Part shown: positions 17,684-58,428 of the stretch, in pieces
Layout: each line of letters opens with the position of its first letter
How positions within the stretch are numbered: the first letter of the stretch is position 1
From: an uncultured Chloracidobacterium sp.
GTDB taxonomy: Bacteria > Acidobacteriota > Blastocatellia > Pyrinomonadales > Pyrinomonadaceae
Direction of reading: 5' to 3'
Length of the DNA stretch: 64,000 nt
Assembly (NCBI GenBank): GCA_936914845.1
Contig: CAKZGE010000004.1
Location: forward strand, 409,658-473,657
The notes under the pieces: model-generated
The model's input: the letters and a program-made list of their open reading frames with translations, nothing else
Told to the model about the DNA's origin: nothing
Databases searched by the model: none
Translations under genes and position numbers: made by a program

Positions 17684-19072
17684 ATGAGACCTGTAAATCA
17701 ATATGCTGTCGCATTATGTGTAGCGGTGATCCTTTTGGGGGTTTTGGTTGGCCGCGGCCAAACTGTGACAAAAACGGATCGCGAAAAACTGGCAAGCGAG
17801 GTAAAAGTAGAGTTTCTGCACGCGTGGAACGGTTATAAGAAATATGCCTGGGGCAATGATGACCTAGCACCGCTCAGCAAAGGGCATCACAATTGGTATG
17901 CAGAACCGCTTTTGATGACGCCGGTGGATGCATTGGATACGATGTATCTGATGGGCGAAAAGGCAGAAGCCGATGCGACCCGGGAATATATTGTTAAAGA
18001 GCTGAGATTTGATAAGGATCTTGATGTCCAAAATTTTGAGATCACTATCCGTTTGTTGGGCGGGCTCCTGTCGGCCTATCAGATCAGCGGCGATGAAAAG
18101 CTCTTGAAACTCGCAGAAGATCTAGGCACGCGGCTGCTGCCGGTGTTCGATTCGCCTACCGGTTTGCCATATAAAAATGTAAATCTGGTCACGGGTAAAA
18201 CCAGCGGGGCAGTAACAAACCCGGCGGAAACGGGCACGCTTTTGATCGAATTCGGCACACTCGCAAAATTGACGAACAAACCGATCTTTTACGAGAAAGC
18301 GAAGCGGGCATTGACGGAAACGTTCAAGCGACGTTCAAAGATCGGGCTGGTGGGAACGCGAATAAATGTCGAGACCGGCGAATGGGTCAATAAGGAAAGC
18401 CATATTAGCGCCGAGATCGATTCGTATTATGAATATTTGCTGAAATGTTCCATCTTGTTCGGCGACAAAGATTGCCGAAAGATGTGGGACGTATCGATCA
18501 AGCCGGTCAACAGATATTTGGCGGACAATGTTGGCGAGGAATTGTGGTACGGTTACGCAGACATGGAAACAGGCAAGCGGACGGCGTCCACCTATGGGGC
18601 TTTGGACGCATTTTTCCCCGGTGTGCTGGCATTGGCCGGAGACCTGAAACGGGCGGAGCGGCTGCAAACATCTTCGTTTAAGATGTGGAATCTACACGGC
18701 ATTGAGCCGGAAGTGCTTAATTACCGGACGATGAAGGTCGAACACGCCGGATATCCGCTGCGGCCGGAAATAATTGAATCAACGTATATTTTGTATCATT
18801 ACACTAAGGACCCGAAATATTTGGCAATGGGCGAAAAAATGTGGCGGGATTTTGTGAAGTATTGCCGCACGGAAGCGGGCTATGCGGCATTGAAAAGTGT
18901 GGTGACAAAAGAAAAGAGAGATTCGATGCAAAGCTTTGTGCTGGCCGAAACATTTAAATATTTTTACCTGCTTTTTGCGACAAAGCCGCCTTTGGAGTTT
19001 GATAAGGTGGTGTTCAATACGGAAGCTCATCCGATCCGCCGCACATGGAATGTTAAAATGGCGGGCAAATAA
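17684..19072 (+). CDS. glycoside hydrolase family 47 (class I alpha-1,2-mannosidase-like)
   Basis: 462 aa. Signal peptide. WNGYKKYAWGNDDLAPLS and FEITIRLLGGLLSAYQISGD closely match GH47 signatures (FETxIRxLGGLLSAY). Begins 11 nt after the M16 gene. Confidence 0.75.
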   Translation: MRPVNQYAVALCVAVILLGVLVGRGQTVTKTDREKLASEVKVEFLHAWNGYKKYAWGNDDLAPLSKGHHNWYAEPLLMTPVDALDTMYLMGEKAEADATREYIVKELRFDKDLDVQNFEITIRLLGGLLSAYQISGDEKLLKLAEDLGTRLLPVFDSPTGLPYKNVNLVTGKTSGAVTNPAETGTLLIEFGTLAKLTNKPIFYEKAKRALTETFKRRSKIGLVGTRINVETGEWVNKESHISAEIDSYYEYLLKCSILFGDKDCRKMWDVSIKPVNRYLADNVGEELWYGYADMETGKRTASTYGALDAFFPGVLALAGDLKRAERLQTSSFKMWNLHGIEPEVLNYRTMKVEHAGYPLRPEIIESTYILYHYTKDPKYLAMGEKMWRDFVKYCRTEAGYAALKSVVTKEKRDSMQSFVLAETFKYFYLLFATKPPLEFDKVVFNTEAHPIRRTWNVKMAGK

Positions 19073-27720: not shown

Positions 27721-27735
27721 CGATCAAGATCAAAA

Positions 27736-27766
27736 AAGAGGCTGGTTTCAGAACAGCCTCTTTTGC
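27736..27766. terminator. bidirectional rho-independent terminator between convergent genes
   Basis: aagaggctg-gtttcagaa-cagcctctt hairpin flanked by A-run and T-run. Lies between the dipeptidase gene (+) and the lyase gene (-). Confidence 0.65.
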
Positions 27767-27776
27767 GGTATAAGAG

Positions 27777-29774
27777 TTATTTTTTGATCTCCAGTTTGAT
27801 CTCGAGATCCTGCGTTCTCGTTTTTGCTTTGGTCGAAATATTCAAACGCACACCGCGCTCTTCGCGTTCCCCTTTATCCACAGATCCGGGACGGCCGGGC
27901 GTTGTCAGGATATTCTTTTCCACCTCCATTTTAAACAGATCCGGTTTGGCAATCGTCACAAAAAGGGAAGGAGCAGGCGGCTCAAAAATGAACCGGCCCG
28001 GCCCGTCGCCGATGATGGAATTGTCCGCATGCAGGAACGACGTTACCGTGCGGGGAATGTCGGTGGCGATCCGGTCTTTGACGATAAAGCTGCCGGGAGC
28101 GATGAATTCAAAGCTCCGGACCAGCTTTTTAACGCCGACCTCCGGTTCGTAGGCAGCGGCAATGTCTGCGGTAACGGCAACTCGATCTTTTTCCAGCAGA
28201 ACATTGGTCAACCGGATCTTGTTCAGCCGCGAATATGGGATGCCGGTGAAAACGTCGTGGCCTTTGCCTTCGCGGTTTTGGCCGATGCCGTCAAATACCA
28301 GCGTGTTGTGATGTTCGGTCAGTGGAAGCCCGGCGTAACCGGAATCGCCCGTCAGGTATTTACCATTCGCCCAGATTATGAAACTGCCGGCATCCGGGTG
28401 AGCATGACCGCTGGAAAGACGCCAATCCGGAAATTGTTCGACCTTTTCCGTTACGGAATGGCCTTCCGGCGGACCGGCCTTAAAGGCGAAAGCCGTAGCA
28501 TCGTCGGCCCAATTGTTTCGCCAGAACACGACGCCGTGATCTTCGAAATAATGAGATGTGGGCTGTTGTTCGATCGATATTGCTCTGATCTCCGGCCGAT
28601 ACCAAATGAATGTCCAGATCTCTTCTGCGTTGACTTGGCCTTTAGACCGCAGCCAGTTTGCAACGCCCTGTGCCTCGCCGCTGTTATAACGTCCGGCAAG
28701 ATTGAATAGAATGTTGTAGTTCGTGCGAAATCTGCCGTCTATGCGTTCGCGTTCATAATCATTACCTTTGCGTGAGCGGGTAACATTCCCGGCATAGATA
28801 TCGCCGAAATCGAAATTGAATTCGCCGCCCGGCAGCGTAATATGTGAAACATATTTGTGGGCAAGTCTGAAGCCCGGCGTGGTTTGATAGAGATCTTCGC
28901 CGGTCGATGCATGATGGGCATCCATATAATGCACTAACCAGGGCGTGGAGAATATCCAATATTCCATGCTTTCGTAGAAATAACCGTCCTGGGTGTAGGT
29001 AGCCAACACGCGGTCAAAGATGGCGCGTGAAAGATCAGCCCATTTCTGAGCTTCGGGGATCTCATCCATCAATGCATAGGCGGTAACGGCTAAACCGCTG
29101 GTCGGTATGAACGTGTGATTTTGACTGTATGCATAGGTCTTGCCTTTTTTGGGTTTGAAAAAGTCGTATAAAAGCCGAGCCTGTTTGACCAGCTTTTCGC
29201 GATACTTTGTTCGCTCCGCCGCAGTCAGGTCATGGTATAACAGGTCGTAGGCCCAGCCCATACCGTAAAGGAGATGGCCGGCTGCCAGATCGACATTTGG
29301 CTTATTGTATGAATACCCCCAAATGTCGTAGCTGACCGCGGCGTCCATATATTTTTTCGCCGCATCAAGGTATTTCTTTTCTCCGGTGATCTTAAAAATA
29401 AGCGCGGCTTCGGCGATGCCCAACCCAACCTCGTTTTGCACACGACGTTCTTCTGCCGGCGGAGCGGGCGGTTCGACCGACAAAGCTCGCACCCGGGCAA
29501 GTGCCGCTTCCCACAGCTCTTTCTGGTCGAGCGTTTTTTGCTTTAACGCATCTATTTGAGACTGGTTCAAGTAAACTCGCGGATGAACGCCTTTCAATTC
29601 CGGGCGGAGGTTGACGGGATGTTCCCGCATCAACCTTTCGATCGGGTGTTCGCCTTTCAGTCGAGCTCCGGCAGCTTTTTCGGCCTCGAGTTCCTGTTTA
29701 TCCTGAGCGGCAACGGCTGCCATTGAAAACGCCGTAATAAGGACAAAGGTAATTATCTTTTGGTAAAACTTCAT
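27777..29774 (-). CDS. heparinase II/III-like polysaccharide lyase with N-terminal alginate-lyase-like (DUF4962) domain (PL15/PL17/PL12-like)
   Basis: 665 aa. Signal peptide. Alpha/alpha-toroid N-terminal region (WGYSYNKPNVDLAAGHLLYGMGWAY) and a C-terminal heparinase II/III-like domain (GHAHPDAGSFIIWANGKYLTGDSGY). Paralog of the 37732-40002 gene. Confidence 0.7.
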   Translation of the reverse strand: MKFYQKIITFVLITAFSMAAVAAQDKQELEAEKAAGARLKGEHPIERLMREHPVNLRPELKGVHPRVYLNQSQIDALKQKTLDQKELWEAALARVRALSVEPPAPPAEERRVQNEVGLGIAEAALIFKITGEKKYLDAAKKYMDAAVSYDIWGYSYNKPNVDLAAGHLLYGMGWAYDLLYHDLTAAERTKYREKLVKQARLLYDFFKPKKGKTYAYSQNHTFIPTSGLAVTAYALMDEIPEAQKWADLSRAIFDRVLATYTQDGYFYESMEYWIFSTPWLVHYMDAHHASTGEDLYQTTPGFRLAHKYVSHITLPGGEFNFDFGDIYAGNVTRSRKGNDYERERIDGRFRTNYNILFNLAGRYNSGEAQGVANWLRSKGQVNAEEIWTFIWYRPEIRAISIEQQPTSHYFEDHGVVFWRNNWADDATAFAFKAGPPEGHSVTEKVEQFPDWRLSSGHAHPDAGSFIIWANGKYLTGDSGYAGLPLTEHHNTLVFDGIGQNREGKGHDVFTGIPYSRLNKIRLTNVLLEKDRVAVTADIAAAYEPEVGVKKLVRSFEFIAPGSFIVKDRIATDIPRTVTSFLHADNSIIGDGPGRFIFEPPAPSLFVTIAKPDLFKMEVEKNILTTPGRPGSVDKGEREERGVRLNISTKAKTRTQDLEIKLEIKK

Positions 29775-29776
29775 AA

Positions 29777-30700
29777 TTATTTCTTCAGGTATCTATTGAA
29801 GAACGCAAGCAGGTCGCTGTTCACGTTTTCGCCGTCGTTCTTATGTCTCAATTTACATTCGATCTTCAGAGCATCCATGCGCTTTTTCAACGCCTTTCCA
29901 AAATTCGGATGATGGATCGCATCGCTAACGCTCGTTTCTTCGGTCATCGGTCGATCCTCGACGGTGTACATCGCCCAGACAGGCGGATCACCGGCGCTCA
30001 GATAGGTTGTTGGGGATGATTCGAGCATCTTTGCTTTCAGCTCGGGCGACGCGGCTTTCAAACCAAATATCTTGCCGTTGGCAAAACTGTGTTTGAATAC
30101 CGCAGAACCGACTTCGTTCTGAAGAACATCGGGGTCGAGCGTGGTTTGGGCCGAAAAGACGGCAATAGCCATGACCCGCGTCGATTCTCTCAGCACGGCG
30201 TCGCTGTTTTTGGGATCGGCCAGATCGTCGTGAAAGCCGATCCACAAAGCCGTAAGGGCTCCGGCGGAGCTGCCCGTCAGAGCGACACGTGCTTTATCGA
30301 TATTCCAATCTTTGGCGTTAAGACGAGCGAATTGTATCGCACGTGCCGCATCCATATACAGTTCCGGCAGCTTTACTTCCGGGAAGAGACGGTAGTTGAT
30401 CGACATGACAGCATAGCCATTTTTTAGAAACTGGTCCAAAAGACTGGCAGAAAGCTTATCTTTATCGCCGTTGACAAAACCGCCGCCATGAATGAAGACC
30501 ACGAGCGGCGTAGCTTTTTTCGCCTTTGGCCTCCAGAGATCGAAGGTATTTCTTTGATGTTCGCCATATTTGCCGTCCACGATGTCCGGCGTGGGCTTTT
30601 CCGCTGCGGATGATCTGCCATCTTTTTGTGCGGCGGCCATTACTGTCATCGCAAACAGCATGGCCCATATGCTTAATGTTCGTAAAGATCTTGATCTCAT
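29777..30700 (-). CDS. secreted alpha/beta-hydrolase esterase (HSL/carboxylesterase-like)
   Basis: 307 aa. Signal peptide. VVFIHGGGF oxyanion motif and GSSAG (GxSxG) nucleophile elbow. Confidence 0.7.
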   Translation of the reverse strand: MRSRSLRTLSIWAMLFAMTVMAAAQKDGRSSAAEKPTPDIVDGKYGEHQRNTFDLWRPKAKKATPLVVFIHGGGFVNGDKDKLSASLLDQFLKNGYAVMSINYRLFPEVKLPELYMDAARAIQFARLNAKDWNIDKARVALTGSSAGALTALWIGFHDDLADPKNSDAVLRESTRVMAIAVFSAQTTLDPDVLQNEVGSAVFKHSFANGKIFGLKAASPELKAKMLESSPTTYLSAGDPPVWAMYTVEDRPMTEETSVSDAIHHPNFGKALKKRMDALKIECKLRHKNDGENVNSDLLAFFNRYLKK

Positions 30701-30704
30701 AATT

Positions 30705-32018
30705 TTATTTTCCTTCCGTTAAAGATGTTTCTAGAAAATCGAACATCCTGTCCATTTGCTCCGGTGTTGCCGTGTGGCCGATCTCCAACGAAAGCTGAAG
30801 ACGTTTCGGGGCAGAGATGAGGTTGTAAACAGCAAACATTGATGTCGGCGGAACTACCTCGTCGTTGTAGCCCCAACCGTAAAGCCCGGGGACGGTCAAA
30901 CGCCGTGCAAAATTTGCCGCATCATAATAGGATGCCGTTTCGAGCTTTTCCTTGGAGCGCATTTTTTCGTCTCGAAAAGCGTGCGGCCAGCCGCCCGCAC
31001 GTCCCGCGACATAGCCGGCGGTGTCTCCGAGAGCCGGATACATCGCCGCAAGCGCTTTTACGCGCTTGTCCAAGGCGGCGGTCATGATCGATAAAGCCCC
31101 GCCCTGACTGCTGCCGATAACACCGAGATCACGGCCATTGTATTGCGGCAATGAAACTAAAAAGTCGTTGGCACGCAAACAACCGAGGTAAACTCGGCGG
31201 TAATAGTAAGAATCTTTGTCATCAAGGTTGTACAGCATATACCGGTTCAATGCACCGGAACGGAGGTCATCGTAAACGGAGGCCGGAAGTGTGACCGGAA
31301 TCCCGTGAATGCCTATCTCCAGTGTAATGAAGCCTCTTTCGGCCATGCTGACCGATCCGGTGTACGGGCGAACGCCGGCACCCGGAACGCGAAGAAGCGC
31401 AGGAAATCTTTGTTCTGGTGAAGAGGTTTTAGGGATCGCCAAGATCCCGTAAATGCGGCTGTTCTTGCTGATGCCGGAGCCGACATTCTGAAAACTGACA
31501 TGGAAGACATCTACTTTGGAGGTGCTCAGGTCGGGCAGCCGCTCCATCTTTGTTTCAAGCGGAATCGCATCAAGAGCTTTGCGGCCCTGCTGCCAAAACC
31601 GATCAAAATCTTTCGGCTCAGCGGTTACCGGCCTTATTTGGTCCGGCCGATACCCGGCGGTAGCCAGCCCGCGATATGATCTGCCGCCTACATCAAGAGC
31701 GGCAATACAACGGAGGAAACCGGGCTGTTTCATTCCGTCAAGTTCGATCGCGAAAGGCTTGTCGGAGGTAGTGATGGACCCTTCTGCGGTGGGAGGCATC
31801 TGTTCGGGGCCGCACGCATATTTTACGGGCAATCCGGCGACCTGGCTGTTGTTAAGCGTGACGGCAATAGTAAAGACGGCCTTTTGCCCGAGTTCATAGT
31901 TCCAATTCGCATGATCCAGCGATATCCGGACCTGGTAGGCTCCGATCTGGTCTTGACCAAATGCCGCGGCGGCAGAGGCGAACAGGATCAAGAAGAAGCA
32001 AAAAGATCGTACCGGCAT
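30705..32018 (-). CDS. acetyl-xylan-esterase-like (AXE1/CE7-type) alpha/beta hydrolase, secreted
   Basis: N-terminal beta-sandwich-like extension plus a C-terminal hydrolase with GSSQGGALS (GxSQG motif typical of AXE1/CE7). The start was moved to MPVRSF, where the signal peptide begins, which avoids overlap with the TonB-dependent receptor gene. Confidence 0.6.
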   Translation of the reverse strand: MPVRSFCFFLILFASAAAAFGQDQIGAYQVRISLDHANWNYELGQKAVFTIAVTLNNSQVAGLPVKYACGPEQMPPTAEGSITTSDKPFAIELDGMKQPGFLRCIAALDVGGRSYRGLATAGYRPDQIRPVTAEPKDFDRFWQQGRKALDAIPLETKMERLPDLSTSKVDVFHVSFQNVGSGISKNSRIYGILAIPKTSSPEQRFPALLRVPGAGVRPYTGSVSMAERGFITLEIGIHGIPVTLPASVYDDLRSGALNRYMLYNLDDKDSYYYRRVYLGCLRANDFLVSLPQYNGRDLGVIGSSQGGALSIMTAALDKRVKALAAMYPALGDTAGYVAGRAGGWPHAFRDEKMRSKEKLETASYYDAANFARRLTVPGLYGWGYNDEVVPPTSMFAVYNLISAPKRLQLSLEIGHTATPEQMDRMFDFLETSLTEGK

Positions 32019-32071
32019 ATATTTATCTACAGTAAAAAAGGGGCCGTAAGAACCGGCCCGCTGTTCCTTGA

Positions 32072-35000
32072 TCAAAAAGTGAACCGCGCCGCAAACTGCA
32101 TCTCGCGATTAGGCGTAACGGTTTGGTAAAATTCACCCGTATTGCTCGTCAAAAGAAGATGCTGCGGTATCTGATAGTTGCTTTGGTTCAGTGCATTGAA
32201 CACTTCCCATCGAAGCTGAAGCCGCATCTTTTCGGCGAAACGGAAATTTTTGAAAAGCGACAGATCGACCGTTTGGTATTTTGGCCCGATCAGAATGTTG
32301 CGTCCGGAATTTCCGAACAATGTCGGATCATCGATGCTGGCCACCGGCCGTGCAAAGGCATTTTCATTGAAATACAAACCGGGAGGGACATTCGCCATCG
32401 GATCGCCAACAAGGTCAGGTCGGCCGGAAGCGGTATCGAGGGAACTGAATACCGGCGTGAACGGACGGCCCGAAAGCAGGGTCACAATACCATTTATCTG
32501 CCAGCCGCCGATCAATGCATCTGTCAAGCCTCTAGCTCCGCGAAAGAAGCTGCCGCGGCGGCCAAAGGGGATCAGGTAGTTGAAGCTAGCGGAGAATTGG
32601 TGCGTTCGGTGCTGATCGGCGAGGCCCCAATCTTTGCGAAAATCGTGAATATCCTGCGGGTTTTTTTGAGCTCCGGTCGTGGAATTGTTCGTGCTGGAAT
32701 TCTGATCCATGGTCTTGCCGAAAGTGTATGACGCCAGCAGCGTCAATCCGTTCTTTGAACGACGGCGGATCGCCGCCTGAACGGCGTTATAGTTTGAATT
32801 TACACCCTGGATCTGATAGGTAATGTCGCCGAACTGTGGAAAGGCACGGGCCGTGACGGGGATACCGGCACTTATAGCTCCCGTCGGATACGGATAATTC
32901 AAATTGTACCGCATACCCAAACGCCGCCCCTGAGATCCAACATAGCCGATCTCCAGGCCGAGGTCGTCGGCAAGTTCATGCTCGAACGTAAGATTGTAGT
33001 GATATACCTCCGGGGTTTGTGAATCTGACGGAATGCCCTGCGGAGTATTCAAGCCCTGTAGCGACGCACGTGGCGACGGAAACGGGTCTTCGAGACGGAT
33101 CTGCCATATATCTGCAGTGGAAGATCGCGAGAACTGTTCCCGGAACAGATAGGGATAATTGTTCGCCAGCTGCTGACGGGCAGGATTGATCGTTTCCGTG
33201 CTGAAGAATATGCCGATGCCGCCGCGAACAACCGTTTTGCCTTTTTTGAAAGGATCGATGGCAAAACCGACCCGCGGAGCGAGATTATTGGTATCGGTAT
33301 CTACCAGTGCACGGGAAAGGCCGAGCGAATTCGCATCGCGGCAAATAACGACACCATTGACGTCTCGTTTTTCGCCGTCAGCACAAGCCGCCATTCCGAT
33401 CTCCGGAATGAAATTGGAGAGCCTGTTCGTCCTTTCGTATAAAAACGGTGTGTAATCATAACGAAGACCAAGATTCAGGGTCAGCCACGGAGCTACTCGC
33501 CAATTGTCCTGAATGTAAAAGGCGGTTTGCCAAGCACGCAGATCTGCGGGTTCGGCACCGGTTTGACGTTGGGTAGAATCGACGATGCCGTACATAAAGT
33601 CCGCAAAAGAGCGAAAGCCATTGGCGGTGGCATTGGCCGGGTTGGTAAATCGGCCACGGAAACGAAAATCGCCGCGGACGTTGCGGATATCGGTTTCGAT
33701 ATAGTTCGGGCGAACAGCATCAAAACCGATCTTGAGATTGTGCTTTCCGACGATCCAGGTCAACGAATCATAGATCGAAAGGTTTTTGTAAACGTAATTG
33801 AACGGGGTATTCGCACTATCGCCCGTATCCGGAAATCCATCAATGCGGATCGCCGGAAAGCCCTGCCATTCCGGAAGTTGGCCGGTCGGCAAGCCCGGAA
33901 TTCCAAATTGTCCGATGAAATCGATCCCGTTATTCTGATTGACGGTCTTATTGTCCTGATCCAGATAGCCGATACGGAATTCATTGACGATCGTCGGCGA
34001 AAATGTATGCGTGTCGCTGAAGGCATAAGACTTTTGGCGATACACAACGTCCCGGCCAAATCCCGGATAGGAAACACGCCCAACGGCACCCGGGGTTCGG
34101 GCATCGCGGTCATCCGTAGCAAAGCGGATATAGAATGAATTCTTGTCGGTCAGCTTGCGGTCGATCTTTGCCGAAAAAAGATTTCGCGGCAGCACATTGC
34201 TGAGCACCGAAAAATTATAGCCATCGATACCATTGTTGGCCGTCGGCAGATATTGCAGCATCTGCAAGGCGATCGGGCTGGCGGTCAAAAGATTTGGGCG
34301 CGTAGGATCCGGGGACAGCGGAATAACGTTTGGTGTCGGACATTCGACCCGTGTCGGGCGCAGCGGATTCGAACTTGTCTGCAAACACATTACACGGTTC
34401 GTATCATCAGCGTTTCCCCAAATGCCGTCCGGGCCTGCTCCGCGAACGTTTCGAAAATCTCCCAGCCGCCACGCCGCACTCGGTGCGATCGAAGAAGAGG
34501 TATTGGAGCGTATCTCGCGGGTTTGTTCGAAGGATGCAAAAAAGAAGGTCTTGTTGCGTCCGCTGTCGAACATCGGGCCGCCTTCGCCGAAATTAAAGAA
34601 CGGCAAGCGGCCGCCGAAAGAGCCGCCAAATTGATTTCTGATCAGCTTTTTCTCGTCTCCGGGCGTATAAAAGGGGCTTTGAGCGTCAAAGGCATCGTTG
34701 CGTAGAAATTCGAACAGGGAGCCGGCATAGCGATTGGAGCCGGATTTTGAGACAACGCTGACCTGTGCTCCGCCAACCCGGCCAAGCTCTGCTGAATAGG
34801 TCGAAGTCGAAACCTTGAATTCCTGAATGGATTCGATCGAGGTATTGACGCCAACGCCGCCGTCTCGATCATTCCTGTTGGCAACACCATCAAGAATAAA
34901 ATTTGATGAATCGGTGCGTGTGCCCGCGGAGCCGAGCCCTTGGCCTTGGTCGTCTTCAGAAGGCCGGCGATAGATTCCCGGGACCAGCAAGGCGAGATCT

Positions 35001-35473
35001 TTAAAATCCCGACCGTTCAGCTGGAGTTCGGTCACCTGGCGTTCGGTGATGACCTCGCCCTTTTCAGGTGTGTCAGTATTGATCACCGGCGGTTCCGAAT
35101 TGATCGTCACCACTTCAGAAATATTTCCTGCTTCGAGCGTAAGATTGATACGCGTCGTGGTGTCCGTCAAAAGCGTGACGTCTTCGCTGACGGCGGTTTT
35201 GAAATTGGCCATCGTCACCGTTACCTTATAGACACTTGGGGGCAATTGGGTGATGGTATATTCGCCATTTTCACCGGAGACCACGGTTCGTGTCAGATTG
35301 GTTCCGGTTTGCGTGGCCGTGATCTCTGCTCCGGCGACGGATGCACCGTTAGAATCGGTGATCTTGCCGACCAGTGTTGATGTGGTCGATTGTGCGGCCG
35401 CGGTCGCCGCAAACACCAGCAGCAGAGCGAGAATCAGCGAAGCTGTTCCCAGGACATTGGTATTTCTGATCAT
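32072..35473 (-). CDS. TonB-dependent receptor with N-terminal carboxypeptidase-regulatory-like domain
   Basis: 1133 aa. Signal peptide. CarbopepD_reg-like beta-sandwich (GKITDSNGASVAGAEITATQTGTN), plug and 22-strand barrel features. C-terminal aromatic residue (...ARFTF). Confidence 0.85.
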   Translation of the reverse strand: MIRNTNVLGTASLILALLLVFAATAAAQSTTSTLVGKITDSNGASVAGAEITATQTGTNLTRTVVSGENGEYTITQLPPSVYKVTVTMANFKTAVSEDVTLLTDTTTRINLTLEAGNISEVVTINSEPPVINTDTPEKGEVITERQVTELQLNGRDFKDLALLVPGIYRRPSEDDQGQGLGSAGTRTDSSNFILDGVANRNDRDGGVGVNTSIESIQEFKVSTSTYSAELGRVGGAQVSVVSKSGSNRYAGSLFEFLRNDAFDAQSPFYTPGDEKKLIRNQFGGSFGGRLPFFNFGEGGPMFDSGRNKTFFFASFEQTREIRSNTSSSIAPSAAWRLGDFRNVRGAGPDGIWGNADDTNRVMCLQTSSNPLRPTRVECPTPNVIPLSPDPTRPNLLTASPIALQMLQYLPTANNGIDGYNFSVLSNVLPRNLFSAKIDRKLTDKNSFYIRFATDDRDARTPGAVGRVSYPGFGRDVVYRQKSYAFSDTHTFSPTIVNEFRIGYLDQDNKTVNQNNGIDFIGQFGIPGLPTGQLPEWQGFPAIRIDGFPDTGDSANTPFNYVYKNLSIYDSLTWIVGKHNLKIGFDAVRPNYIETDIRNVRGDFRFRGRFTNPANATANGFRSFADFMYGIVDSTQRQTGAEPADLRAWQTAFYIQDNWRVAPWLTLNLGLRYDYTPFLYERTNRLSNFIPEIGMAACADGEKRDVNGVVICRDANSLGLSRALVDTDTNNLAPRVGFAIDPFKKGKTVVRGGIGIFFSTETINPARQQLANNYPYLFREQFSRSSTADIWQIRLEDPFPSPRASLQGLNTPQGIPSDSQTPEVYHYNLTFEHELADDLGLEIGYVGSQGRRLGMRYNLNYPYPTGAISAGIPVTARAFPQFGDITYQIQGVNSNYNAVQAAIRRRSKNGLTLLASYTFGKTMDQNSSTNNSTTGAQKNPQDIHDFRKDWGLADQHRTHQFSASFNYLIPFGRRGSFFRGARGLTDALIGGWQINGIVTLLSGRPFTPVFSSLDTASGRPDLVGDPMANVPPGLYFNENAFARPVASIDDPTLFGNSGRNILIGPKYQTVDLSLFKNFRFAEKMRLQLRWEVFNALNQSNYQIPQHLLLTSNTGEFYQTVTPNREMQFAARFTF

Positions 35474-35510
35474 AATCTCTCCTTCAATATGGCCGGGGGC
35501 GGCCCGTCTT

Positions 35511-36314
35511 TTAATCCATCAGCATTCCGCCGTTTACCTCGATCGTTTCACCACACAGATAGCTGGCGGCATCAGAAGCGAGAAACCCGATCACGGTGGC
35601 AACCTCGGAAGATCTGCCGACCCGACCCATCGGAATTATGTTCTGTGCAAAATTCTTCATCGCTTCGGGCGTTGAGAAGATCTCGTGAAAAGGGGTATCA
35701 ATAACTCCGGGAGAAACTGCGTTGATGCGGATCCCTTGTGCGGCAAATTCCTTAGCCATGCCCTTGGTCATGGTCAAAATGGCCGCTTTGCCGGATGAAT
35801 AGTGGATAGAGCCGGGAGCTCCGCCATTGCGGGCGGCGATCGATGTGGTATTAACGATCACACCGGAGCCTTTTTCCAGCATTTTGGGTATTACCGCCTG
35901 CGAGGCAAAAAAGGCGCTTTTTACGTTTAGGTCGATCACCTCATCCCAGCGAGATTCATTTAGTTCAAGGGTGCGGAGCCGCTCCACCAACGAACCGGCA
36001 TTGTTGACCAGAATATCGACCGGGCCGAGCTTTTCTTCGACCTCGCGTACCATTTCCAGGATCTCTGCCGTATGAATGACATTGGCCCGAACAGTAATCG
36101 CACGGCCCGTTCCGGCTGCTTCATTGATGGTTGCGGCTGCAGCTTCTGCCCCGGCCTGATTGTTGTGAAAATGTACGGCGACCGATGCTCCGCAAGCACC
36201 AAAAAATTCCGCTGTCGCGCGACCGATACCGCTTGAGGCACCGGTAACGAGAACGATCTTTCCGCTGAAATCAAAATAATTTTGCATAGTCTGTATTTTT
36301 GTTTTTACTCCCAA
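35511..36314 (-). CDS. SDR family oxidoreductase (KduD / DEH-reductase / FabG-like)
   Basis: 267 aa. VTGASSGIGRA Rossmann motif, NNAG motif, and YxxxK (YSSGKAA). Confidence 0.75.
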   Translation of the reverse strand: MGVKTKIQTMQNYFDFSGKIVLVTGASSGIGRATAEFFGACGASVAVHFHNNQAGAEAAAATINEAAGTGRAITVRANVIHTAEILEMVREVEEKLGPVDILVNNAGSLVERLRTLELNESRWDEVIDLNVKSAFFASQAVIPKMLEKGSGVIVNTTSIAARNGGAPGSIHYSSGKAAILTMTKGMAKEFAAQGIRINAVSPGVIDTPFHEIFSTPEAMKNFAQNIIPMGRVGRSSEVATVIGFLASDAASYLCGETIEVNGGMLMD

Positions 36315-36317
36315 TTT

Positions 36318-37721
36318 TTAGATAGATCTGTTAGCTTCGCCGACCTTTGCGATCTTGCCGACAAAGAGAAAAAGAGCGGCTGTGCCAAGCGGGGCCAAAA
36401 GCCCGGCGGCAACTAATATCGGTGTATAAGAGAAATGATCAACGACCCATCCGGTAGTGAAAATAAAGATCATCGAGCCAAAACCGGCCCCTGTGCCGCC
36501 CAAGCCGGCGACCGACCCGACCGCCTTTGATGAGAATAGATCGCTCGGTAAAGTTTGGACGTTATTGATCCATACCTGAAAGCCGAATAGAACCACGGAG
36601 ATCAAGCCGAGTGCGGCCATCGCGTTTGGTGTGAAAGCAGCGGCAATGCCCGCCGGCATAAGGCAAGCGGCAAAGAGGATGACGGTTTTACGGGCCTTGT
36701 TAACAGACCAGCCGCGGCCGATAAGATGCCCCGAGAGCCATCCGCCAAATAGGCTGCCGGCGTCTGCGGCAACGAAGGGTACCCAGGCGAACAAGCCGAT
36801 ATCGCGCAGCTCAAATCCATGGACCTTGCTTAGGAAAAGCGGCAGCCACGTGATATAAAGCCACCAGACAGGGTCAACAAGAAAACGCGAAAGGACGATT
36901 CCCCACGTTTGACGGTAGGTCAAAAGTTCGAACCATCCGATCGCTTTTTCTTCCGGAACGGTCACGGGAGCCTGAGCAGCGATCGTGGTCTCAGACATCG
37001 GGACCGGTTCCATTGTTTGCGGCTGTTCTTTTATCAGCCGATATTCCTCTTGCGTCAGCCAGCGATGATCTTCCGGCGTGTCATAAATGAACCACCACAT
37101 GCCAAGCCATATAAATCCGAGCAAGCCGGTAACTATGAAAACATCGTGCCAATTGCCGAACAGGGCCGCGAGTCCGACGATCAGAGGTGTGGCAACGATC
37201 GAACCTATTGCCGCACCGCTGTTGAATATCGCCATACCCATAGCCCGCTGGCGAGCAGGGAACCATTCGGCGACCGTTTTCGCCGCACCGGGCCAATTGC
37301 CGGCTTCTCCGAACCCCAATACGAACCGACAAGCACTCAGCCCGCGGATCGTGGTCGCCCAAGCGGTGGCGATCCCCGCCAAGGACCAGACCGTGATCGA
37401 CAACGTAAAGCCTTTTTTTATCCCGATCTTGTCGTAAAGCTTGCCGGAAAGACTTTGACTTACCGTATAGGCAAGCAAAAACCAAGTGGCGATCGCACCG
37501 AATTCGGTATTGTTCAACCCCAGGTCGTTCATAATGGTCGGACCCAAAACCGAGATCGTCATACGGTCGATGTAATTGATAAGTGTCGCGAAAAAGATCA
37601 TCGTAATGATGACCCAACGCACGCCGCGGAATTTTGTCCCGCCCGTATTTGTTTGTCCTAGATCGGTCATAAAAAAATCTAAAAGGTCGGTCAGTTGATT
37701 GGATAAACCAATTTGACCCAT
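36318..37721 (-). CDS. MFS transporter (hexuronate / sugar-acid ExuT-like)
   Basis: 12-TM MFS architecture. The ORF-track start overlaps the upstream lyase gene by 47 nt, so an internal Met (MGQIG) was used. Confidence 0.7.
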   Translation of the reverse strand: MGQIGLSNQLTDLLDFFMTDLGQTNTGGTKFRGVRWVIITMIFFATLINYIDRMTISVLGPTIMNDLGLNNTEFGAIATWFLLAYTVSQSLSGKLYDKIGIKKGFTLSITVWSLAGIATAWATTIRGLSACRFVLGFGEAGNWPGAAKTVAEWFPARQRAMGMAIFNSGAAIGSIVATPLIVGLAALFGNWHDVFIVTGLLGFIWLGMWWFIYDTPEDHRWLTQEEYRLIKEQPQTMEPVPMSETTIAAQAPVTVPEEKAIGWFELLTYRQTWGIVLSRFLVDPVWWLYITWLPLFLSKVHGFELRDIGLFAWVPFVAADAGSLFGGWLSGHLIGRGWSVNKARKTVILFAACLMPAGIAAAFTPNAMAALGLISVVLFGFQVWINNVQTLPSDLFSSKAVGSVAGLGGTGAGFGSMIFIFTTGWVVDHFSYTPILVAAGLLAPLGTAALFLFVGKIAKVGEANRSI

Positions 37722-37731
37722 CCGCCATTGC

Positions 37732-40002
37732 CTATTCGGCCGTGCTAAAGATCCCCGTTCTTTTTTGGGAGGAGGCAAATAAGAGGCGGCTTCGCCATGT
37801 CAGGGTCGCAGCATTTTTTACGTACGCCCGGACCGGTTTGCCGGCCGTATCTATCTTGATGACGACCAAGCTGCTGTCTGTTTCGAGCTCTTCGCCGAGG
37901 CCTGTTAAAAAAACGAGATCCTTTGATCCGTCAGGAAACTTGATCGTGATGGTGTCGGCATTCCGCGATACCTCAGGTTTTATTTCGGAAGCCGTGGGAA
38001 ATGGGATCATCACATTGATCAGTTCTGTCGATCTTGCCGCGTCTTGGGTTGCGATGCGAAGCTGCATACCGCGAACTTCCATGTCGCCGTCGGCTACGCT
38101 GCCCGGCAATCCACGGGCTTGCACTTGCTGCGGGACGACCTCCGTCTTTACCGTTAAACCGCTTAGGGGAAAAACACCGAGCGTGACGTCCTGGTTGATA
38201 AGATCGATGCGGCCTTGTTGGATCTTGATATCACGGTCGGCATTGAGCATAAATGTGACGCCCGCCGGTTTTTCGGTTTCGACGAGATCCCGGATCACGA
38301 AATAGCCCGGAGCAAGGTAGAGCATTTCCCGGCGGAAGGTGTTCACGCCAAGTTCCGGGGCATATGCCGCCGAGGCTTCGCCGGACACAAAAAAATGGTC
38401 TCTGCCGCCGTGAGTTTCGCTAATGCGGATGTGGTCGAGGCGGGTCTGAGATATGTCTTTGAAGACCTCGTATCTTCCGTCCTGCTGTTGGCCGCTGCCG
38501 TTTATTAAAAGTGTGTTGTGGTCGTCCGTCTGCTTGATGCCTAAATATCCGGTGTCACCGGTCAGATACTTGCCGCCGGCCCAAATAATGAAGGAATTCG
38601 CGTCCGGATGGGCATGCCCTTGGTTCAACCGCCAATCCTTGATCTTAGGCGACAGTCGTGCCGCATGGTGGCCTTCCGGCGGTGAGCTGCGAAACGCTAT
38701 CGCCGTTGCTCTTTCAGACCAATCCGAACGCCAGAAAACCGTGTCGTTATCGGTAAAATGATGGTAAGCAGATATCTGTTCCAGCGGATCAGATCCAACT
38801 TTCTGATCGCGGTTGATGAATGCCCACATCGGTTCGCGGGTTCCCAGAACCGTCTTTTTTCGCAGATGGTCGGCGACACCTTGCGCTTTTGTATCTTGAT
38901 AGACGGCCGCGAGACGATAGATCATGTCATATTCGGCATATATCTTTTCGCGGGTTGAGATGCCGTTGCGCGTTAGTGAACCTTCGCCGATATCGCCGAT
39001 GTCGAAGATGTTTTTGCTGTCCGGCAGGACCGAATGGATCGCAAAGTATTTAATGCCGGCAAGTTTTGAGCGCATCGGCCGGTATAGGTCTTCGCCGGTG
39101 GCGGCAAGATGGGCGTCGAAATATCTGATCGCCCAACGAAACGCAAAACCGAGGTAATGGAAACTTTCATAAAAGAATCCGTCCGTACCGAAGGTAAGCA
39201 TGGTGCGGTCAAATACCGCCCGCGAAAGCTGTGCCCAGGCCTTGACCTCCGGTGCTTCATCCATGAGAGCGTAAGCGGCGATGGCAAGTCCGGCCATCGG
39301 GATCCAGGTGTGATTTTGGCTGAATGTATAGCGTTTACCTTGCTTGTATTTGAAGTATTCATACATCAGCCGGCCCTGTTTCAAGAGCTTTTCGCGAATA
39401 ATAGACCTTTCTTCGGGTGAAAGTTCCCGGTACAAAAGGTCGTAGGAAAAGGCGACGGCATAAAGCAGATGTGCCGGCGGCAGATCAACATTGGGTTTGT
39501 TGTAGGTATAGCCCCAGAGAGGCATTTCACAGGCCGCGAGCGTCCACTTTTTTGCCGCTGCGAGATATCGCGGATCCTGTTCGACCGCATACGCAAAGGC
39601 TGTTTCGGCTATCTGGAATGCCATGTTGTATTGCGAGATGCTGCCCGGCTTGCGCTTATCGAGTCCGCTTTTATATAGGTCTTCGTCATGCGGGTCGGGA
39701 GCAGGTCGCCGTAGTGTTTGAATATCCGACAGAACCTGCTGCCACAATTCACGGCCATCAGAGGTCTTTGCTTTGGAGCGAAAGGCGAGAATCGAAGCTT
39801 CGGTAAAAAACAACCGTGGATGAACCCCGTTCAGTTCCTTGCGAAGTTCGATTGGGCGGGCGAGGAGTTCGGTAAAAGGTGCGATCTCGTCGATGGGGCG
39901 AGCCATGACGATCGGCGAAATGCTTGTTGCAGAAACAATGAGGAGCAGAGCCGACAACATCGGCACTCGAACCCATTTATTTATGTTAACGATAACATTC
40001 AT
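37732..40002 (-). CDS. heparinase II/III-like polysaccharide lyase with N-terminal alginate-lyase-like domain (paralog of 27777-29774)
   Basis: 756 aa. Signal peptide. Shares blocks with the paralog (WGYTYNKPNVDLPPAHLLYAVAFSY, GHAHPDANSFIIWAGGKYLTGDTGY). Confidence 0.7.
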   Translation of the reverse strand: MNVIVNINKWVRVPMLSALLLIVSATSISPIVMARPIDEIAPFTELLARPIELRKELNGVHPRLFFTEASILAFRSKAKTSDGRELWQQVLSDIQTLRRPAPDPHDEDLYKSGLDKRKPGSISQYNMAFQIAETAFAYAVEQDPRYLAAAKKWTLAACEMPLWGYTYNKPNVDLPPAHLLYAVAFSYDLLYRELSPEERSIIREKLLKQGRLMYEYFKYKQGKRYTFSQNHTWIPMAGLAIAAYALMDEAPEVKAWAQLSRAVFDRTMLTFGTDGFFYESFHYLGFAFRWAIRYFDAHLAATGEDLYRPMRSKLAGIKYFAIHSVLPDSKNIFDIGDIGEGSLTRNGISTREKIYAEYDMIYRLAAVYQDTKAQGVADHLRKKTVLGTREPMWAFINRDQKVGSDPLEQISAYHHFTDNDTVFWRSDWSERATAIAFRSSPPEGHHAARLSPKIKDWRLNQGHAHPDANSFIIWAGGKYLTGDTGYLGIKQTDDHNTLLINGSGQQQDGRYEVFKDISQTRLDHIRISETHGGRDHFFVSGEASAAYAPELGVNTFRREMLYLAPGYFVIRDLVETEKPAGVTFMLNADRDIKIQQGRIDLINQDVTLGVFPLSGLTVKTEVVPQQVQARGLPGSVADGDMEVRGMQLRIATQDAARSTELINVMIPFPTASEIKPEVSRNADTITIKFPDGSKDLVFLTGLGEELETDSSLVVIKIDTAGKPVRAYVKNAATLTWRSRLLFASSQKRTGIFSTAE

Positions 40003-40035
40003 AGATGCTAAGCATTCTCCGGTTAATACATGAGT

Positions 40036-41085
40036 TCAAGCGGGAAAAACGCTCGATTCACGTATGATCAGTTCGCAGCCGAGGATCTTTTCGGAGCGTC
40101 CGAGGTCATTGGCTGCTATGCGCTTCAAGAGCATTTCGGCCGCGAGTTTGCCCTGCAGACGCATGGGCTGGCGAACGGTCGTCAGCGAAGGCATTGTGTG
40201 CACGGCCATCGGCGTGTCATCAAAACCAACAATTGCGATGTCCTGCGGAATCGAAAGGCCTGCTTCTTTGACGGCGGTCATTGCGCCGACGGCGGTGAAA
40301 TCATTTCGTGCGAAAACGGCCGTTGGAGCATTCGGAAGCGAGAGAAGACGTTTCATGCCTTCATAGCCGATCTTTTCAGTCGAATAGCCGGGGACATCAA
40401 ATTTTGTCGTGCTGCCGCCGGTGATCAATCTTTCGTCCACCTCAAAGCCGTGCTGTTCGAGAGCTTCCAGATAACCCTGCAGACGCTTTAGAGTCGAACG
40501 GTTCTCATAAACGGCCCCTAAAAATGCGATACGTTTGTGGCCGAGGTCGATCAAATGCCGAGTGGCTTCAAATCCGCCGGCAAAATTATCAGTTGCGACC
40601 GAATCTATCTGTTCGTGAACAAGATCGCGGCCGACCACGACGACGGCCATGCTGCTTTCGGCAATGCTGCGGAGTTTTTCATCTCCTTCTGTATTTGAGC
40701 GGGTAGCCACGATTATTCCATCAACATTATGATCGGCGAGCGACTCAAAGGCTGCGATGTCTTCTTCGGCGCTATGTTCGCTGATGCAGATAAAAAGATT
40801 GTAGCCGCGAAGAGCAAGTGTTTCGCGGACGGCATTTGCCAGTTCTGTGGCGTAGGGGTTTGAGATGTCGCCGATGACGAGCCCGACGGTGTCTGTCCGC
40901 TGCCGTTTCAGATTGCGGGCCACACCGTTTCGGCGGTAATTCATTTCTTTTACAACGGCAAGTACCTTTTCGCGGGTTTCTTCGCTAACGTAGCCGGACC
41001 GGTTCACGACACGCGAGACCGTCATCGTGGCAACACCGCTGCGGCGTGCGATATCCGTTAGTGTAGCTTGTTTTCGTTTTGCCAT
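40036..41085 (-). CDS. LacI family transcriptional regulator
   Basis: 349 aa. N-terminal HTH (ATLTDIARRSGVATMTVSRVVN) and a periplasmic-binding-protein-like sugar-binding core. Confidence 0.85.
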   Translation of the reverse strand: MAKRKQATLTDIARRSGVATMTVSRVVNRSGYVSEETREKVLAVVKEMNYRRNGVARNLKRQRTDTVGLVIGDISNPYATELANAVRETLALRGYNLFICISEHSAEEDIAAFESLADHNVDGIIVATRSNTEGDEKLRSIAESSMAVVVVGRDLVHEQIDSVATDNFAGGFEATRHLIDLGHKRIAFLGAVYENRSTLKRLQGYLEALEQHGFEVDERLITGGSTTKFDVPGYSTEKIGYEGMKRLLSLPNAPTAVFARNDFTAVGAMTAVKEAGLSIPQDIAIVGFDDTPMAVHTMPSLTTVRQPMRLQGKLAAEMLLKRIAANDLGRSEKILGCELIIRESSVFPA

Positions 41086-41116
41086 GCTGTAAGTCGTGTT
41101 AAAACCGGAGAAATTG

Positions 41117-41130
41117 AGTTAACGTTAACT
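41117..41130. promoter_or_regulatory. candidate LacI-family operator (perfect palindrome AGTTAACGTTAACT with central CG)
   Basis: Perfect 14-bp palindrome 32 bp upstream of the LacI start. Matches the generic LacI-family operator core AA-CG-TT. Confidence 0.5.
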
Positions 41131-41286
41131 TAATATCACACAGGCCTTATGAATTGCAAGGCTATGCTGCCGAAAAGATCACGGGAATGAAATGAGAACA
41201 GTGCCGGAATGGGCCATGAAGCGCGAAAAAAGCAGAAGACCGACACGGATGTCGCATCTTCTGCCTAAAAAAGCCGCGATAGAGTT

Positions 41287-49558: not shown

Positions 49559-50278
49559 TTGACGGTTGTTTCATCTTTGCAATATACTTTTAAGTCCGGC
49601 ACAAAAACGAGGCCGAGAAATATTGTCGTGGCACAACTAAGTCTGGTCAAATCGGCCTCACAGCTCAAGGAAGAACAAAGCCATTCCGATGAAATAGTTT
49701 TGGAATTTGCGGGTATCGCATTTGCCCGCGGTTCTTTGTCCGAGATCTCTGGCGGAGCTGCTTCCGGCAAGACTGCGATCGCTCTTGCCTTATTGGCCAA
49801 GCTGACGGTTGCCGGAGAAGTATGTGCGGTGGTCGATTCCAGCAACGGATTCGATCCGATCACGGCCGCGGCTGGCGGCGTATTGCTGGAAAATCTGCTG
49901 TGGGTCAGGTGCGGTGGATGCATCGAAAAGGCTTTTATGGCGGCCGATCATCTGGTTCAGGCAAAAGGTTTTGGGGCGATATGGCTTAATCTATGCGGGC
50001 TTTCGCAGCAGAAACTGAGAATGGTGCCAAAGACCTATTGGTATCGATACCGTACCCGAATGAAAGAAACACCCACGCTGATGGTCGTTACAGGAGAAGA
50101 GCCGGTCACCGGATCTGCCTCACAACGATCATTTGTCTTTGAACGAGAAAAGGCGATGTGGTCCGGCAGCGGACGGTTTAAATTGCTTCGTTCGATAAAC
50201 ATTAAAATGGCTTCGCGCAAGCATTATTACGATGGGCCGATCCGGATGCGGATCGAAGCGAATTATGAAAAGGGCTAA
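49559..50278 (+). CDS. imuA: ImuA-like RecA-fold protein (SulA/ImuA family) of the mutagenesis cassette
   Basis: 239 aa. RecA-like degenerate P-loop (GGAASGKTAIALALLAKL). Lies directly upstream of imuB and dnaE2. The start codon is uncertain. Confidence 0.65.
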   Translation: MTVVSSLQYTFKSGTKTRPRNIVVAQLSLVKSASQLKEEQSHSDEIVLEFAGIAFARGSLSEISGGAASGKTAIALALLAKLTVAGEVCAVVDSSNGFDPITAAAGGVLLENLLWVRCGGCIEKAFMAADHLVQAKGFGAIWLNLCGLSQQKLRMVPKTYWYRYRTRMKETPTLMVVTGEEPVTGSASQRSFVFEREKAMWSGSGRFKLLRSINIKMASRKHYYDGPIRMRIEANYEKG

Positions 50279-54904: not shown

Positions 54905-54977
<73 letters not shown>

Positions 54978-56882: not shown

Positions 56883-56957
56883 GCGGAGCACCCTACGGTT
56901 TCTCCCTTGATTATCGCATCGTCCATCTCTTCAACGGATTCAAACGAACTGGTATCT

Positions 56958-57737: not shown

Positions 57738-57744
57738 TTACGCT

Positions 57745-58182: not shown

Positions 58183-58184
58183 AT

Positions 58185-58421: not shown

Positions 58422-58428
58422 GAGTTTG

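Follow-up and report, generated by a model that had tools for sequence, protein, structure and literature searches.

A LacI-controlled operon for the probable catabolism of a polyuronate, possibly O-acetylated alginate, in an uncultured Blastocatellia acidobacterium

In this study, we concluded that the minus-strand gene block at 27777–41130 of a 64-kb window (the whole stretch of DNA analysed here) from an uncultured Blastocatellia (Pyrinomonadaceae-like) acidobacterium is very probably a catabolic operon for a polyuronate under repression by a LacI-family regulator. That the polyuronate is O-acetylated, and most likely bacterial alginate, is the reading we prefer, with moderate confidence. 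The evidence consists of gene content, domain families, the conservation of operators, promoter and active sites, and synteny with 72 related loci obtained from a scan of species-representative genomes. All 72 are in metagenome-assembled genomes (MAGs), which are labelled Acidobacteriota, Blastocatellia or Pyrinomonadaceae, a few being mislabelled. The window itself recurs unchanged within ENA ERZ27263058, a metagenome contig of 624 kb.

Operon organization and the two operators

The operon reads from lacI through lyase A, an ExuT-like transporter of the major facilitator superfamily (MFS), a short-chain dehydrogenase/reductase (SDR), a TonB-dependent receptor, a CE7-like esterase and a BD-FAE esterase to lyase B, with intergenic gaps of 0–53 bp across the eight genes, and from terminator to terminator it occupies 27728–41265 (Table 1). 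An earlier reading of the DNA, made without database searches (the sequence-only reading), had described this operon, and every gene in its description was found in place; it had counted eight genes after lacI, where there are seven. Among the related loci, lacI-MFS-SDR-lyase B forms the invariant core.

Three features of the LacI/GalR class are present, namely a helix-turn-helix (HTH) domain (PF00356, E 8.3e-19, residues 8–53), an effector domain (Peripla_BP_1, _3 and _4, E 1e-22 to 1e-38, with Peripla_BP_1 and _3 at 1e-35 to 1e-38) and palindromic operators with a central CG at the predicted regulated promoters. The lacI product reached no NCBIfam equivalog cut-off, and its orthologues, 48–77% identical, stand at the head of related loci. 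The perfect palindrome that the sequence-only reading had paired with this regulator (O1, AGTTAACGTTAACT) occurs once in 64 kb, and allowing up to two mismatches adds no site (0.04 expected by chance). O1 lies 1 nt past the −10 hexamer and 31 bp before the lacI ATG. The pairing is upheld by the related loci, since the O1 core GTTAWCGWTAAC was found 24–63 bp upstream of lacI in 34 of the 40 that bear lacI, with the consensus (A/T)GTTAWCGTTAAC(A/T).

A second operator had been missed. This site, O2 (TGTTATCGTTAACA; consensus over the related loci TGTTAWCGWTAACA), surfaced when related loci were scanned with three mismatches, and then in a search with the 12-bp core GTTAWCGWTAAC, which at up to one mismatch finds only O1 and O2 in the window, 1133 bp apart. 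The single-operator picture given by the search with up to two mismatches was thereby overturned. O2 stands at the start of lyase A, 3–12 nt after the ATG and in a constant frame, in 15 of the 16 loci that carry this gene, and in 12 lyase-A-less loci a second site precedes the first structural gene, whether MFS or receptor, by 1–377 bp. Altogether, 61 of the 67 GTTAWCGWTAAC-type sites in 1.16 Mb of related DNA occupy the O1 (34) or O2 (27) position, and the other six equal the chance expectation of about six (about 0.34 per 64 kb). The O2 DNA is kept even at third-codon positions while the adjoining signal-peptide residues vary freely, which argues for selection on the DNA.

The TTGCAA/GATATT promoter of lacI was not listed by a simple promoter scan and was read from the sequence and the alignment. 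Its layout, TTGCA-N16/17-TGTGATATTAA (in short form TTGCA-N16-TGTGATATT) abutting the operator, is shared by most of the 34 aligned orthologous upstream regions. Because O1 abuts the −10 element, bound repressor would cover the predicted transcription start. The 33-bp gap between lacI and lyase A, upstream of O2, holds no convincing promoter; O2 may block a separate promoter or be a roadblock for transcription that reads through from the lacI promoter. Each site is probably bound by the repressor as a dimer. A DNA loop from O1 to O2 is unlikely, because the 349-aa protein stops at the effector domain and has no C-terminal tetramerisation extension, and because the O1–O2 spacing ranges from 1088 to 1228 bp among the related loci.

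Operators in coding regions are known from E. coli, with lac O2 in lacZ and gal OI in galE. The present arrangement is similar in that a second LacI/GalR-family operator lies within the first structural gene and is paired with a promoter-proximal one. In contrast to lac and gal, O2 here fills codons 3–6 and doubles as the n-region of the predicted signal peptide, and without a tetramerisation tail looping over ~1.13 kb is doubtful.

In several sister loci a ROK protein with an N-terminal MarR-like HTH (NagC/Mlc type) is encoded beside the core (L042 6082–7308, L060, L031, L033, L050, L063 and L058). L042 and L060 yielded no LacI homologue, and there the ROK gene runs divergently from the core.

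Enzymes and transport proteins of the operon

Lyases A and B are paralogues with 43% identity over 621 residues, and lyase A is longer by a C-terminal extension of ~95 aa. The sequence-only reading had recognized two paralogous heparinase II/III-type lyases, correctly, but had given them alginate-lyase-like N-domains, which belong instead to Pfam DSE-like_N (DUF4962) and not to Alginate_lyase. In phmmer searches against the PDB, the lyases matched the PL15 enzyme Atu3025 and human dermatan-sulfate (DS) epimerase at 1e-14 to 2e-16, PL35 at 1e-10 to 1e-12 and the Dp0100 alginate lyase (6jp4) at 1e-7 to 1e-10. The best solved relative of lyase A was Atu3025 (1.5e-14), and the best single-sequence match of lyase B was human DS-epimerase 1 (2e-16). 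A family profile placed Atu3025 first (3.5e-25), followed by DS-epimerase (7.9e-22) and PL35 (1e-17), and Atu3025 was also the top match by Foldseek. Residues H311, Y365 and H531 of Atu3025 align with the family-invariant H220, Y272 and H457 of lyase B and H231, Y283 and H463 of lyase A, and both lyases have the (α/α)-toroid and antiparallel β-sandwich of the PL15 fold.

Of the earlier label PL15/PL17-like, the catalytic His/Tyr/His of Atu3025 is what stands; placement in either family does not. In the family comparison the lyases were roughly equidistant from about eight families (PL35, 26.6; PL15, 25.4; DS-epimerase, 24.8; PL17, 23.8; PL15 subfamily 2, 23.3; PL12, 22.1; PL21, 21.9; PL39, 20.9; PL33, 20.4). 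NCBIfam had no family for either lyase, for the CE7-like esterase or for the β-propeller neighbour of the operon. Judged by these comparisons, lyases A and B are active-site-competent members of the lyase/epimerase superfold outside any solved family, and they could possibly belong to PL34 or to a new family. Homologues of lyase B number at least 1997 at E ≤ 1e-10 and are mostly metagenomic. A whole-library search gave 403 cluster representatives at E ≤ 1e-30, mostly at 30–35% identity; the distant ones are named only 'DUF4962' or 'heparinase II/III', and the clade is largely unannotated. One homologue with 33% identity, in a Spirochaetota MAG, has a GDSL esterase, GH2 and AraC regulators as neighbours, an uninformative context.

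Lyase A is predicted to be a secreted or periplasmic polyuronate lyase, and lyase B is probably a periplasmic one. Lyase B is the only polymer-active enzyme of the minimal locus and must therefore yield something that the MFS transporter imports and the SDR converts, from which we infer an exolytic, monomer-releasing mode. We put forward only tentatively that lyases A and B represent a new CAZy family or deep subfamily confined to uncultured Blastocatellia and constitute, together with two dedicated periplasmic O-acetyl-uronan esterases, the first described alginate/glucuronan system of Acidobacteriota.

The transporter aligns along its full length with E. coli ExuT at 34% identity (227 bits, 420 residues), in agreement with its earlier designation as ExuT-like, and matches TIGR00893 at 1.2e-76, under the cut-off. 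It is predicted to import the uronate monomer across the inner membrane. [quoted passage not shown] The second likeness is real, with PDB matches to the DEH reductases A1-R' (6e-42) and A1-R (1e-40), although generic FabG-like proteins score higher (4e-49). KduD itself was ruled out, the identity to E. coli KduD being 33% against 53% for a separate gene in L041; the SDR scores 123 bits with KduD and 142–147 bits with A1-R/A1-R'. In the cytoplasm it would reduce the unsaturated uronate monomer to 2-keto-3-deoxygluconate (KDG).

The receptor, which the sequence-only reading had also named with its CarboxypepD_reg domain, is by its domain composition an outer-membrane TonB-dependent receptor of the acidobacterial CarboxypepD_reg/OMP_b-brl_4 type. 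Besides the matches in Table 1 it has a predicted signal peptide, a barrel of the 22-strand class and a TonB_dep_Rec_b-barrel match (1.2e-3). Its plug match is weak (E 0.011, 16.7 bits, cut-off 23.9), yet lies at the expected position, 134–232. Orthologues in loci of the same layout are 50–66% identical. None of the eight gene products matched the SusD family.

Characterised CE7 acetyl esterases are typically intracellular and have no signal peptide. The CE7-like esterase departs from this norm by a signal-peptide-like N-terminus, and it also has an N-terminal extension of ~110 aa and a GSSQGG nucleophile motif. AXE1 (PF05448) covers residues 148–449 of its long open reading frame (ORF), above the cut-off, and its top PDB matches are acetyl-xylan esterases and cephalosporin-C deacetylases (9e-32). 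The BD-FAE esterase has the carbohydrate/acetyl-xylan esterases 6xyc and 6tkx among its PDB matches (2e-12), and a weak NCBIfam similarity to the pectin acetylesterase PaeX. The earlier call of an AXE1/CE7-like esterase and a second esterase is thus sound. Both esterases, both lyases and the receptor have signal-peptide-like N-termini, and the SDR has none.

Pathway and substrate

Considering these features, we propose a model in which repressor binding, protein localisation, exo or endo mode, substrate identity, the SDR reaction and the inducer are deduced from the genes. In the absence of substrate, a LacI-family dimer on O1, abutting the −10 element and over the predicted start site, and on O2 would hold expression at a basal level. 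Uronate oligomers or polymer chains would cross the outer membrane through the TonB-dependent receptor; in the periplasm the two secreted esterases would remove O-acetyl groups, and the two His/Tyr β-elimination lyases would cut the chains down to the 4,5-unsaturated monomer, probably exolytically in the case of lyase B. The monomer would enter through the ExuT-like transporter and be reduced by the SDR to KDG, which KDG kinase and 2-keto-3-deoxy-6-phosphogluconate (KDPG) aldolase encoded elsewhere would finish. A pathway intermediate would release the repressor.

The sister loci carry genes that bear on this model. Orthologues of lyase A with 57–65% identity are present in 16 related loci, with two divergent copies in addition; the CE7-like esterase is present in 22 and the BD-FAE esterase in 18, and the receptor is variable too. 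In roughly half of the informative loci, one esterase or more lies immediately upstream of lyase B. KDG kinase occurs in 10 loci and KDPG aldolase in 8, several of them directly after lyase B; neither was found in the 64-kb window. In L030 and L062, which have the gene order of the window, a large secreted PL6 protein (Fn3-PL6-CarboxypepD_reg) is encoded between the esterases and lyase B; the best solved relatives of this protein are without exception alginate lyases (1e-31), and chondroitinase B reaches 3e-14. In L030 (6695–9828), the 'fn3' and 'PL6' ORFs are one gene split by a masked N run, which encodes a secreted multidomain lyase of ~1040 aa in which Fn3 and CarboxypepD_reg-like domains occur twice each. 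In L022–L024 a PL38 gene lies within the operon between receptor and lyase B, matching 3nfv at 2e-99 and BoPL38 at 1.5e-73. A 'PL5' label for such Pfam Alginate_lyase genes in the sister loci was rejected: the PL38 structures fit, and PL5 (A1-III) reaches only 4e-6. The presence of PL6, PL38, KDG kinase, KDPG aldolase, KduI, KduD and GH105 in sister loci indicates that the substrate is a polyuronate, and the proposal of an operon for an acetylated uronate polymer, already made in the sequence-only reading, is strengthened by the first four.

Several findings favour alginate. The layout of the window co-occurs with PL6 of the alginate clade and in no case with KduI or GH105 inside 10 kb, PL38 lies within the operon in L022–L024, KDG kinase and KDPG aldolase accompany the core in some loci, the core SDR scores DEH reductases above E. 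coli KduD, the closest profile match of the lyases, Atu3025, is an exotype oligo-alginate lyase, and the gene set parallels that of known alginate systems. One reductase suffices to convert the alginate monomer DEH to KDG, whereas the monomer 5-keto-4-deoxyuronate (DKI), derived from glucuronate or galacturonate, needs KduI and KduD. Alginate made in soil by Pseudomonas and Azotobacter is O-acetylated, which gives the two esterases a role. The missing KduI was considered as proof of alginate and dropped: KDG kinase and KDPG aldolase are likewise absent from most loci, so that pathway genes are often unlinked and the absence of KduI is no argument for alginate.

Several observations weigh against alginate or against parts of the model. 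No gene in the window codes for an enzyme of a family proven to act on alginate, the SDR is generic with FabG-like proteins as its best matches, and there is no KdgF in the gene set. The signal peptides were called by visual inspection alone. Both esterase families are known for action on xylan, cephalosporin and feruloyl substrates and not on alginate. PL38 cleaves polyglucuronate as well as alginate (PMC11890756). Moreover, a GH105 whose nearest solved relative is an unsaturated β-glucuronyl hydrolase (4ce7, 2e-97) is encoded in nine lyase-A-less loci, and a KduI with 43% identity to the E. coli enzyme in six such loci. The KduI-MFS-SDR-lyase B genes of L071 form a single string, and in L041 a true KduD follows kdgK-eda in the same string. 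These genes point to monomers of the glucuronate or galacturonate type. Modules with KduI, KduD and GH105 beside the same core imply that some members of the family process glucuronate-type monomers.

A second module beside the core, exemplified by L049 (11421–20149) and also seen in L056, L068, L071, L042 and L060, consists of a receptor, a 631–636-aa protein, BD-FAE, PL38, KduI and GH105. Next to the core or interleaved with it, such a module is present in nine lyase-A-less loci. The conserved 631–636-aa protein, encoded directly after the module receptor, has no Pfam match and could be a novel binding protein or enzyme.

These modules bear on the strongest alternative, in which architecture and regulation are the same and the substrate is O-acetylated β-1,4-glucuronan, another glucuronate-rich exopolysaccharide or a fungal wall polymer. 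The lyases would then release unsaturated glucuronate (DKI), KduI and KduD encoded elsewhere would convert it to KDG, and the operon SDR would be auxiliary. We consider this improbable but deserving of serious attention. The O-acetylation of rhizobial glucuronan would account for the two esterases. The GH105, KduI and PL38 module stands beside or within MFS-SDR-lyase B in 6–9 sister loci, including the L071 string, with the KduD of L041 in addition, and lyase B is as near to enzymes acting on glucuronate or iduronate (PL35, DS-epimerase) as to alginate lyases. The PL38 family also includes endo- and exo-glucuronan lyases (PMC11890756). However, KduI and GH105 turned up only in lyase-A-less loci, and neither was found within 10 kb of any lyase-A-type locus. 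The loci with the window's layout carry alginate-clade PL6 instead, a family for which, to our knowledge, no glucuronan activity has been reported. Furthermore, the operon SDR is not KduD-like, and KduI, KduD and GH105 were not found in the window. The sequence-only reading had held that the substrate is not fixed by sequence alone, and KduI and GH105 in the sister loci do keep β-glucuronan as a rival to alginate.

It is unlikely that the substrate is some other uronate glycan, such as pectic oligogalacturonides, a heparosan/hyaluronan-like capsule, gellan/sphingan or an uncharacterised soil or cyanobacterial exopolysaccharide, for whose linkage lyases A and B would be specialised. Enzymes with DUF4962 and Hepar_II_III_C domains do include exo-heparinases and broad-spectrum glycosaminoglycan lyases (PMC7904915, PMC11262172). 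The PaeX-like similarity of the BD-FAE esterase, the ROK-type (NagC-like) regulators in place of LacI in several sister loci, and the ExuT-like transporter, which is compatible with galacturonate or glucuronate, point the same way. Against this, a search of the window's locus and the scanned sister-locus genes found no GH28, GH78, GH106, GH3, GH20 or GH88-type unsaturated glucuronyl hydrolase, and no sulfatase, CE8 methylesterase or hexosamine catabolism genes. With neutral- and amino-sugar hydrolases absent, the gene set could not finish a heteropolymer, whereas a homopolyuronate can be finished.

It is highly improbable that lyase A, lyase B or both are uronyl C5-epimerases of the DS-epimerase type that remodel the polymer and do not degrade it: although DS-epimerase 1 tops the PDB matches of lyase B with the same His/Tyr/His constellation, the Pfam name of the N-domain is now DSE-like_N, and the alginate lyase BoPL38 has a secondary epimerase activity (bioRxiv 10.1101/2024.12.11.627697), the genes stand in a catabolic string with an importer and a reductase, KDG kinase and aldolase accompany them in sister loci, the minimal locus has lyase B alone on the polymer and without cleavage would leave nothing for the transporter and the SDR, and the family profile favours the lyase Atu3025 over the epimerase.

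Known systems, feature list and further observations

The overall design, with repressor, outer-membrane receptor, periplasmic lyases, MFS transporter and reductase, is that of known alginate and uronate loci. The LacI-family regulator AlgO controls the alginate genes of Sphingomonas A1 and is released by pathway intermediates, and in Zobellia the MFS protein ExuT2 imports the monomer (PMC7641319). The alginate polysaccharide utilization locus (PUL) of Bacteroides eggerthii contains a regulator, reductases, an MFS transporter, an exolytic lyase, an outer-membrane transporter, a secreted esterase and PL6 (PMC11381880). The Bacteroidota systems, namely the alginate utilization system (AUS) of Zobellia galactanivorans and the PULs of B. 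eggerthii and B. ovatus CP926, resemble the present operon in a repressor with operators at several promoters, a TonB-dependent transporter, one or more periplasmic exolytic (α/α)-toroid lyases, an ExuT-like monomer transporter and a cytoplasmic reductase leading to KDG. The B. eggerthii PUL shares in addition a secreted carbohydrate esterase, and its PL6 has counterparts here, with PL38, in sister loci. In contrast to those systems, the operon has no SusD partner and no KdgF, its receptor is of the acidobacterial type, its repressor belongs to the LacI family and not to GntR, its lyases form a distinct clade that is not PL17, PL7 or PL6, two esterases (CE7-like and BD-FAE) replace one CE20, and the host is a soil acidobacterium represented by MAGs only.

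Atu3025 of Agrobacterium tumefaciens (PDB 3a0o/3afl) shares the two-domain fold and the catalytic H311/Y365 and H531. AlgO is alike, by description, in that it belongs to the LacI family and represses a soil bacterium's gene cluster for alginate catabolism, whereas Sphingomonas A1 imports polymer by a pit and an ABC transporter in place of a TonB-dependent receptor and MFS transporter. Glucuronan systems are matched by the PL38, GH105, KduI and KduD genes beside MFS-SDR-lyase B in sister loci, and differ in that these genes are absent from the window's locus and from loci of the same layout.

What is new is the uncultured Blastocatellia host, a lyase clade at equal distance from eight families, the frequent presence of two secreted esterases as accessories, and a two-operator LacI arrangement, defined by conservation footprints, in which one predicted operator doubles as signal-peptide codons. 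In the literature we found nothing relevant on alginate with Pyrinomonadaceae, and no catabolic alginate acetyl-esterase. Common as they are in soils and biocrusts, Pyrinomonadaceae and other Blastocatellia are poorly represented in culture, and what they use as carbon sources is mostly guesswork. This widespread locus family gives the testable hypothesis that Blastocatellia scavenge the acidic, O-acetylated exopolysaccharides of other microbes. If it is true, with a new lyase family and its esterases, abundant oligotrophic soil bacteria would be consumers of acetylated biofilm polyuronates. The locus extends existing understanding and does not overturn it; it offers a candidate new lyase clade and candidate uronan acetyl-esterases for follow-up, and the two-operator LacI regulon could be used as a biosensor or expression marker.

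Table 1. Genes and regulatory elements of the operon, with positions in the window
Feature	Position	Strand	Description
Upstream stem-loop with U-run, intrinsic-terminator-like	41226–41265	minus	−20.8 kcal/mol, z −4.65, 0/200 shuffles as stable
lacI promoter, sigma-70-like	41132–41159	minus	TTGCAA (−35), 16-nt spacer with TGT, GATATT (extended TG −10)
Operator O1	41117–41130	both	AGTTAACGTTAACT; perfect 14-bp palindrome, central CG
lacI	40036–41085	minus	349 aa; LacI HTH and Peripla_BP domains
Operator O2	39984–39997	both	TGTTATCGTTAACA; 12-bp core is codons 3–6 (V-I-V-N) of lyase A
Lyase A	37732–40002	minus	756 aa; DSE-like_N/DUF4962 2.9e-15, Hepar_II_III_C 6.7e-12
ExuT-like ACS-family MFS symporter	36318–37721	minus	MFS_1 1.7e-53
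Classical SDR	35511–36287	minus	adh_short_C2 6e-57
TonB-dependent receptor	32072–35473	minus	1133 aa; OMP_b-brl_4 8.9e-217, CarboxypepD_reg 1.5e-18
Stem-loop with U-run between receptor and esterase genes	32041–32059	minus	−15.1 kcal/mol, z −2.5
AXE1/CE7-like esterase	30705–32018	minus	AXE1 5.1e-41
BD-FAE/alpha-beta-hydrolase-3 esterase	29777–30700	minus	BD-FAE 8.2e-31
Lyase B	27777–29774	minus	665 aa; DSE-like_N/DUF4962 and Hepar_II_III_C, as in lyase A
Downstream terminator stem-loop	27728–27764	minus	−15.8 kcal/mol, z −3.85; common to the convergent M19 dipeptidase gene

The neighbours of the operon are unrelated to it (SecA, a β-propeller protein, and M19, S9 and M16 peptidases), and the upstream stem-loop is predicted to end the β-propeller gene and to insulate the operon. 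The stem-loop behind the receptor gene is possibly a partial terminator or an mRNA stabiliser. Most related loci (L004–L014, L062, L070, L072 and L073) have stable stem-loops just after the receptor gene, at −17 to −32 kcal/mol; their sequences are unrelated and some have no U-run. As partial terminators or stabilisers of the mRNA, these structures may uncouple the level of the receptor from that of the enzymes.

LarA-like (Lar_N) proteins are encoded among the uronate genes of L071 (5553–6851), L056 (13864–15165) and L041 (14972–16273), and the window has one of its own, more distant, at 6235–7836, about 20 kb from the operon. Some LarA homologues are hydroxy-acid or sugar-acid epimerases, and a link of these genes to uronate or aldonate metabolism is conceivable. 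In L008 (13865–15178), a gene for a 437-aa BNR_2 (sialidase-like β-propeller) protein is inserted between the MFS and SDR genes.

Elsewhere in the window, a plus-strand row at 49559–54649 comprises a RecA_N-like gene (49559–50278), a 432-aa gene with no Pfam match (50232–51530) and a DnaE2-like gene (51527–54649), a paralogue of DNA polymerase III alpha; the row resembles an imuA-imuB-dnaE2 mutagenesis cassette. It is followed by tRNA-Thr(TGT) at 54905–54980, a 504-aa Fic-domain protein at 55368–56882 and a patch of 37% G+C at ~58000–60000, against ~51% elsewhere, with ORFs that have no Pfam matches. The region 54905–60000 may be an island integrated at the tRNA. GH47 is best known from eukaryotic N-glycan processing, and a full-length GH47 α-mannosidase domain (E 6e-124) is encoded at 17684–19072 on the plus strand. 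On the same strand, 10272–14693 encodes a 1473-aa protein with fatty-acyl-reductase-like (NAD_binding_4 and Sterile), AMP-binding, phosphopantetheine carrier and acyltransferase domains.

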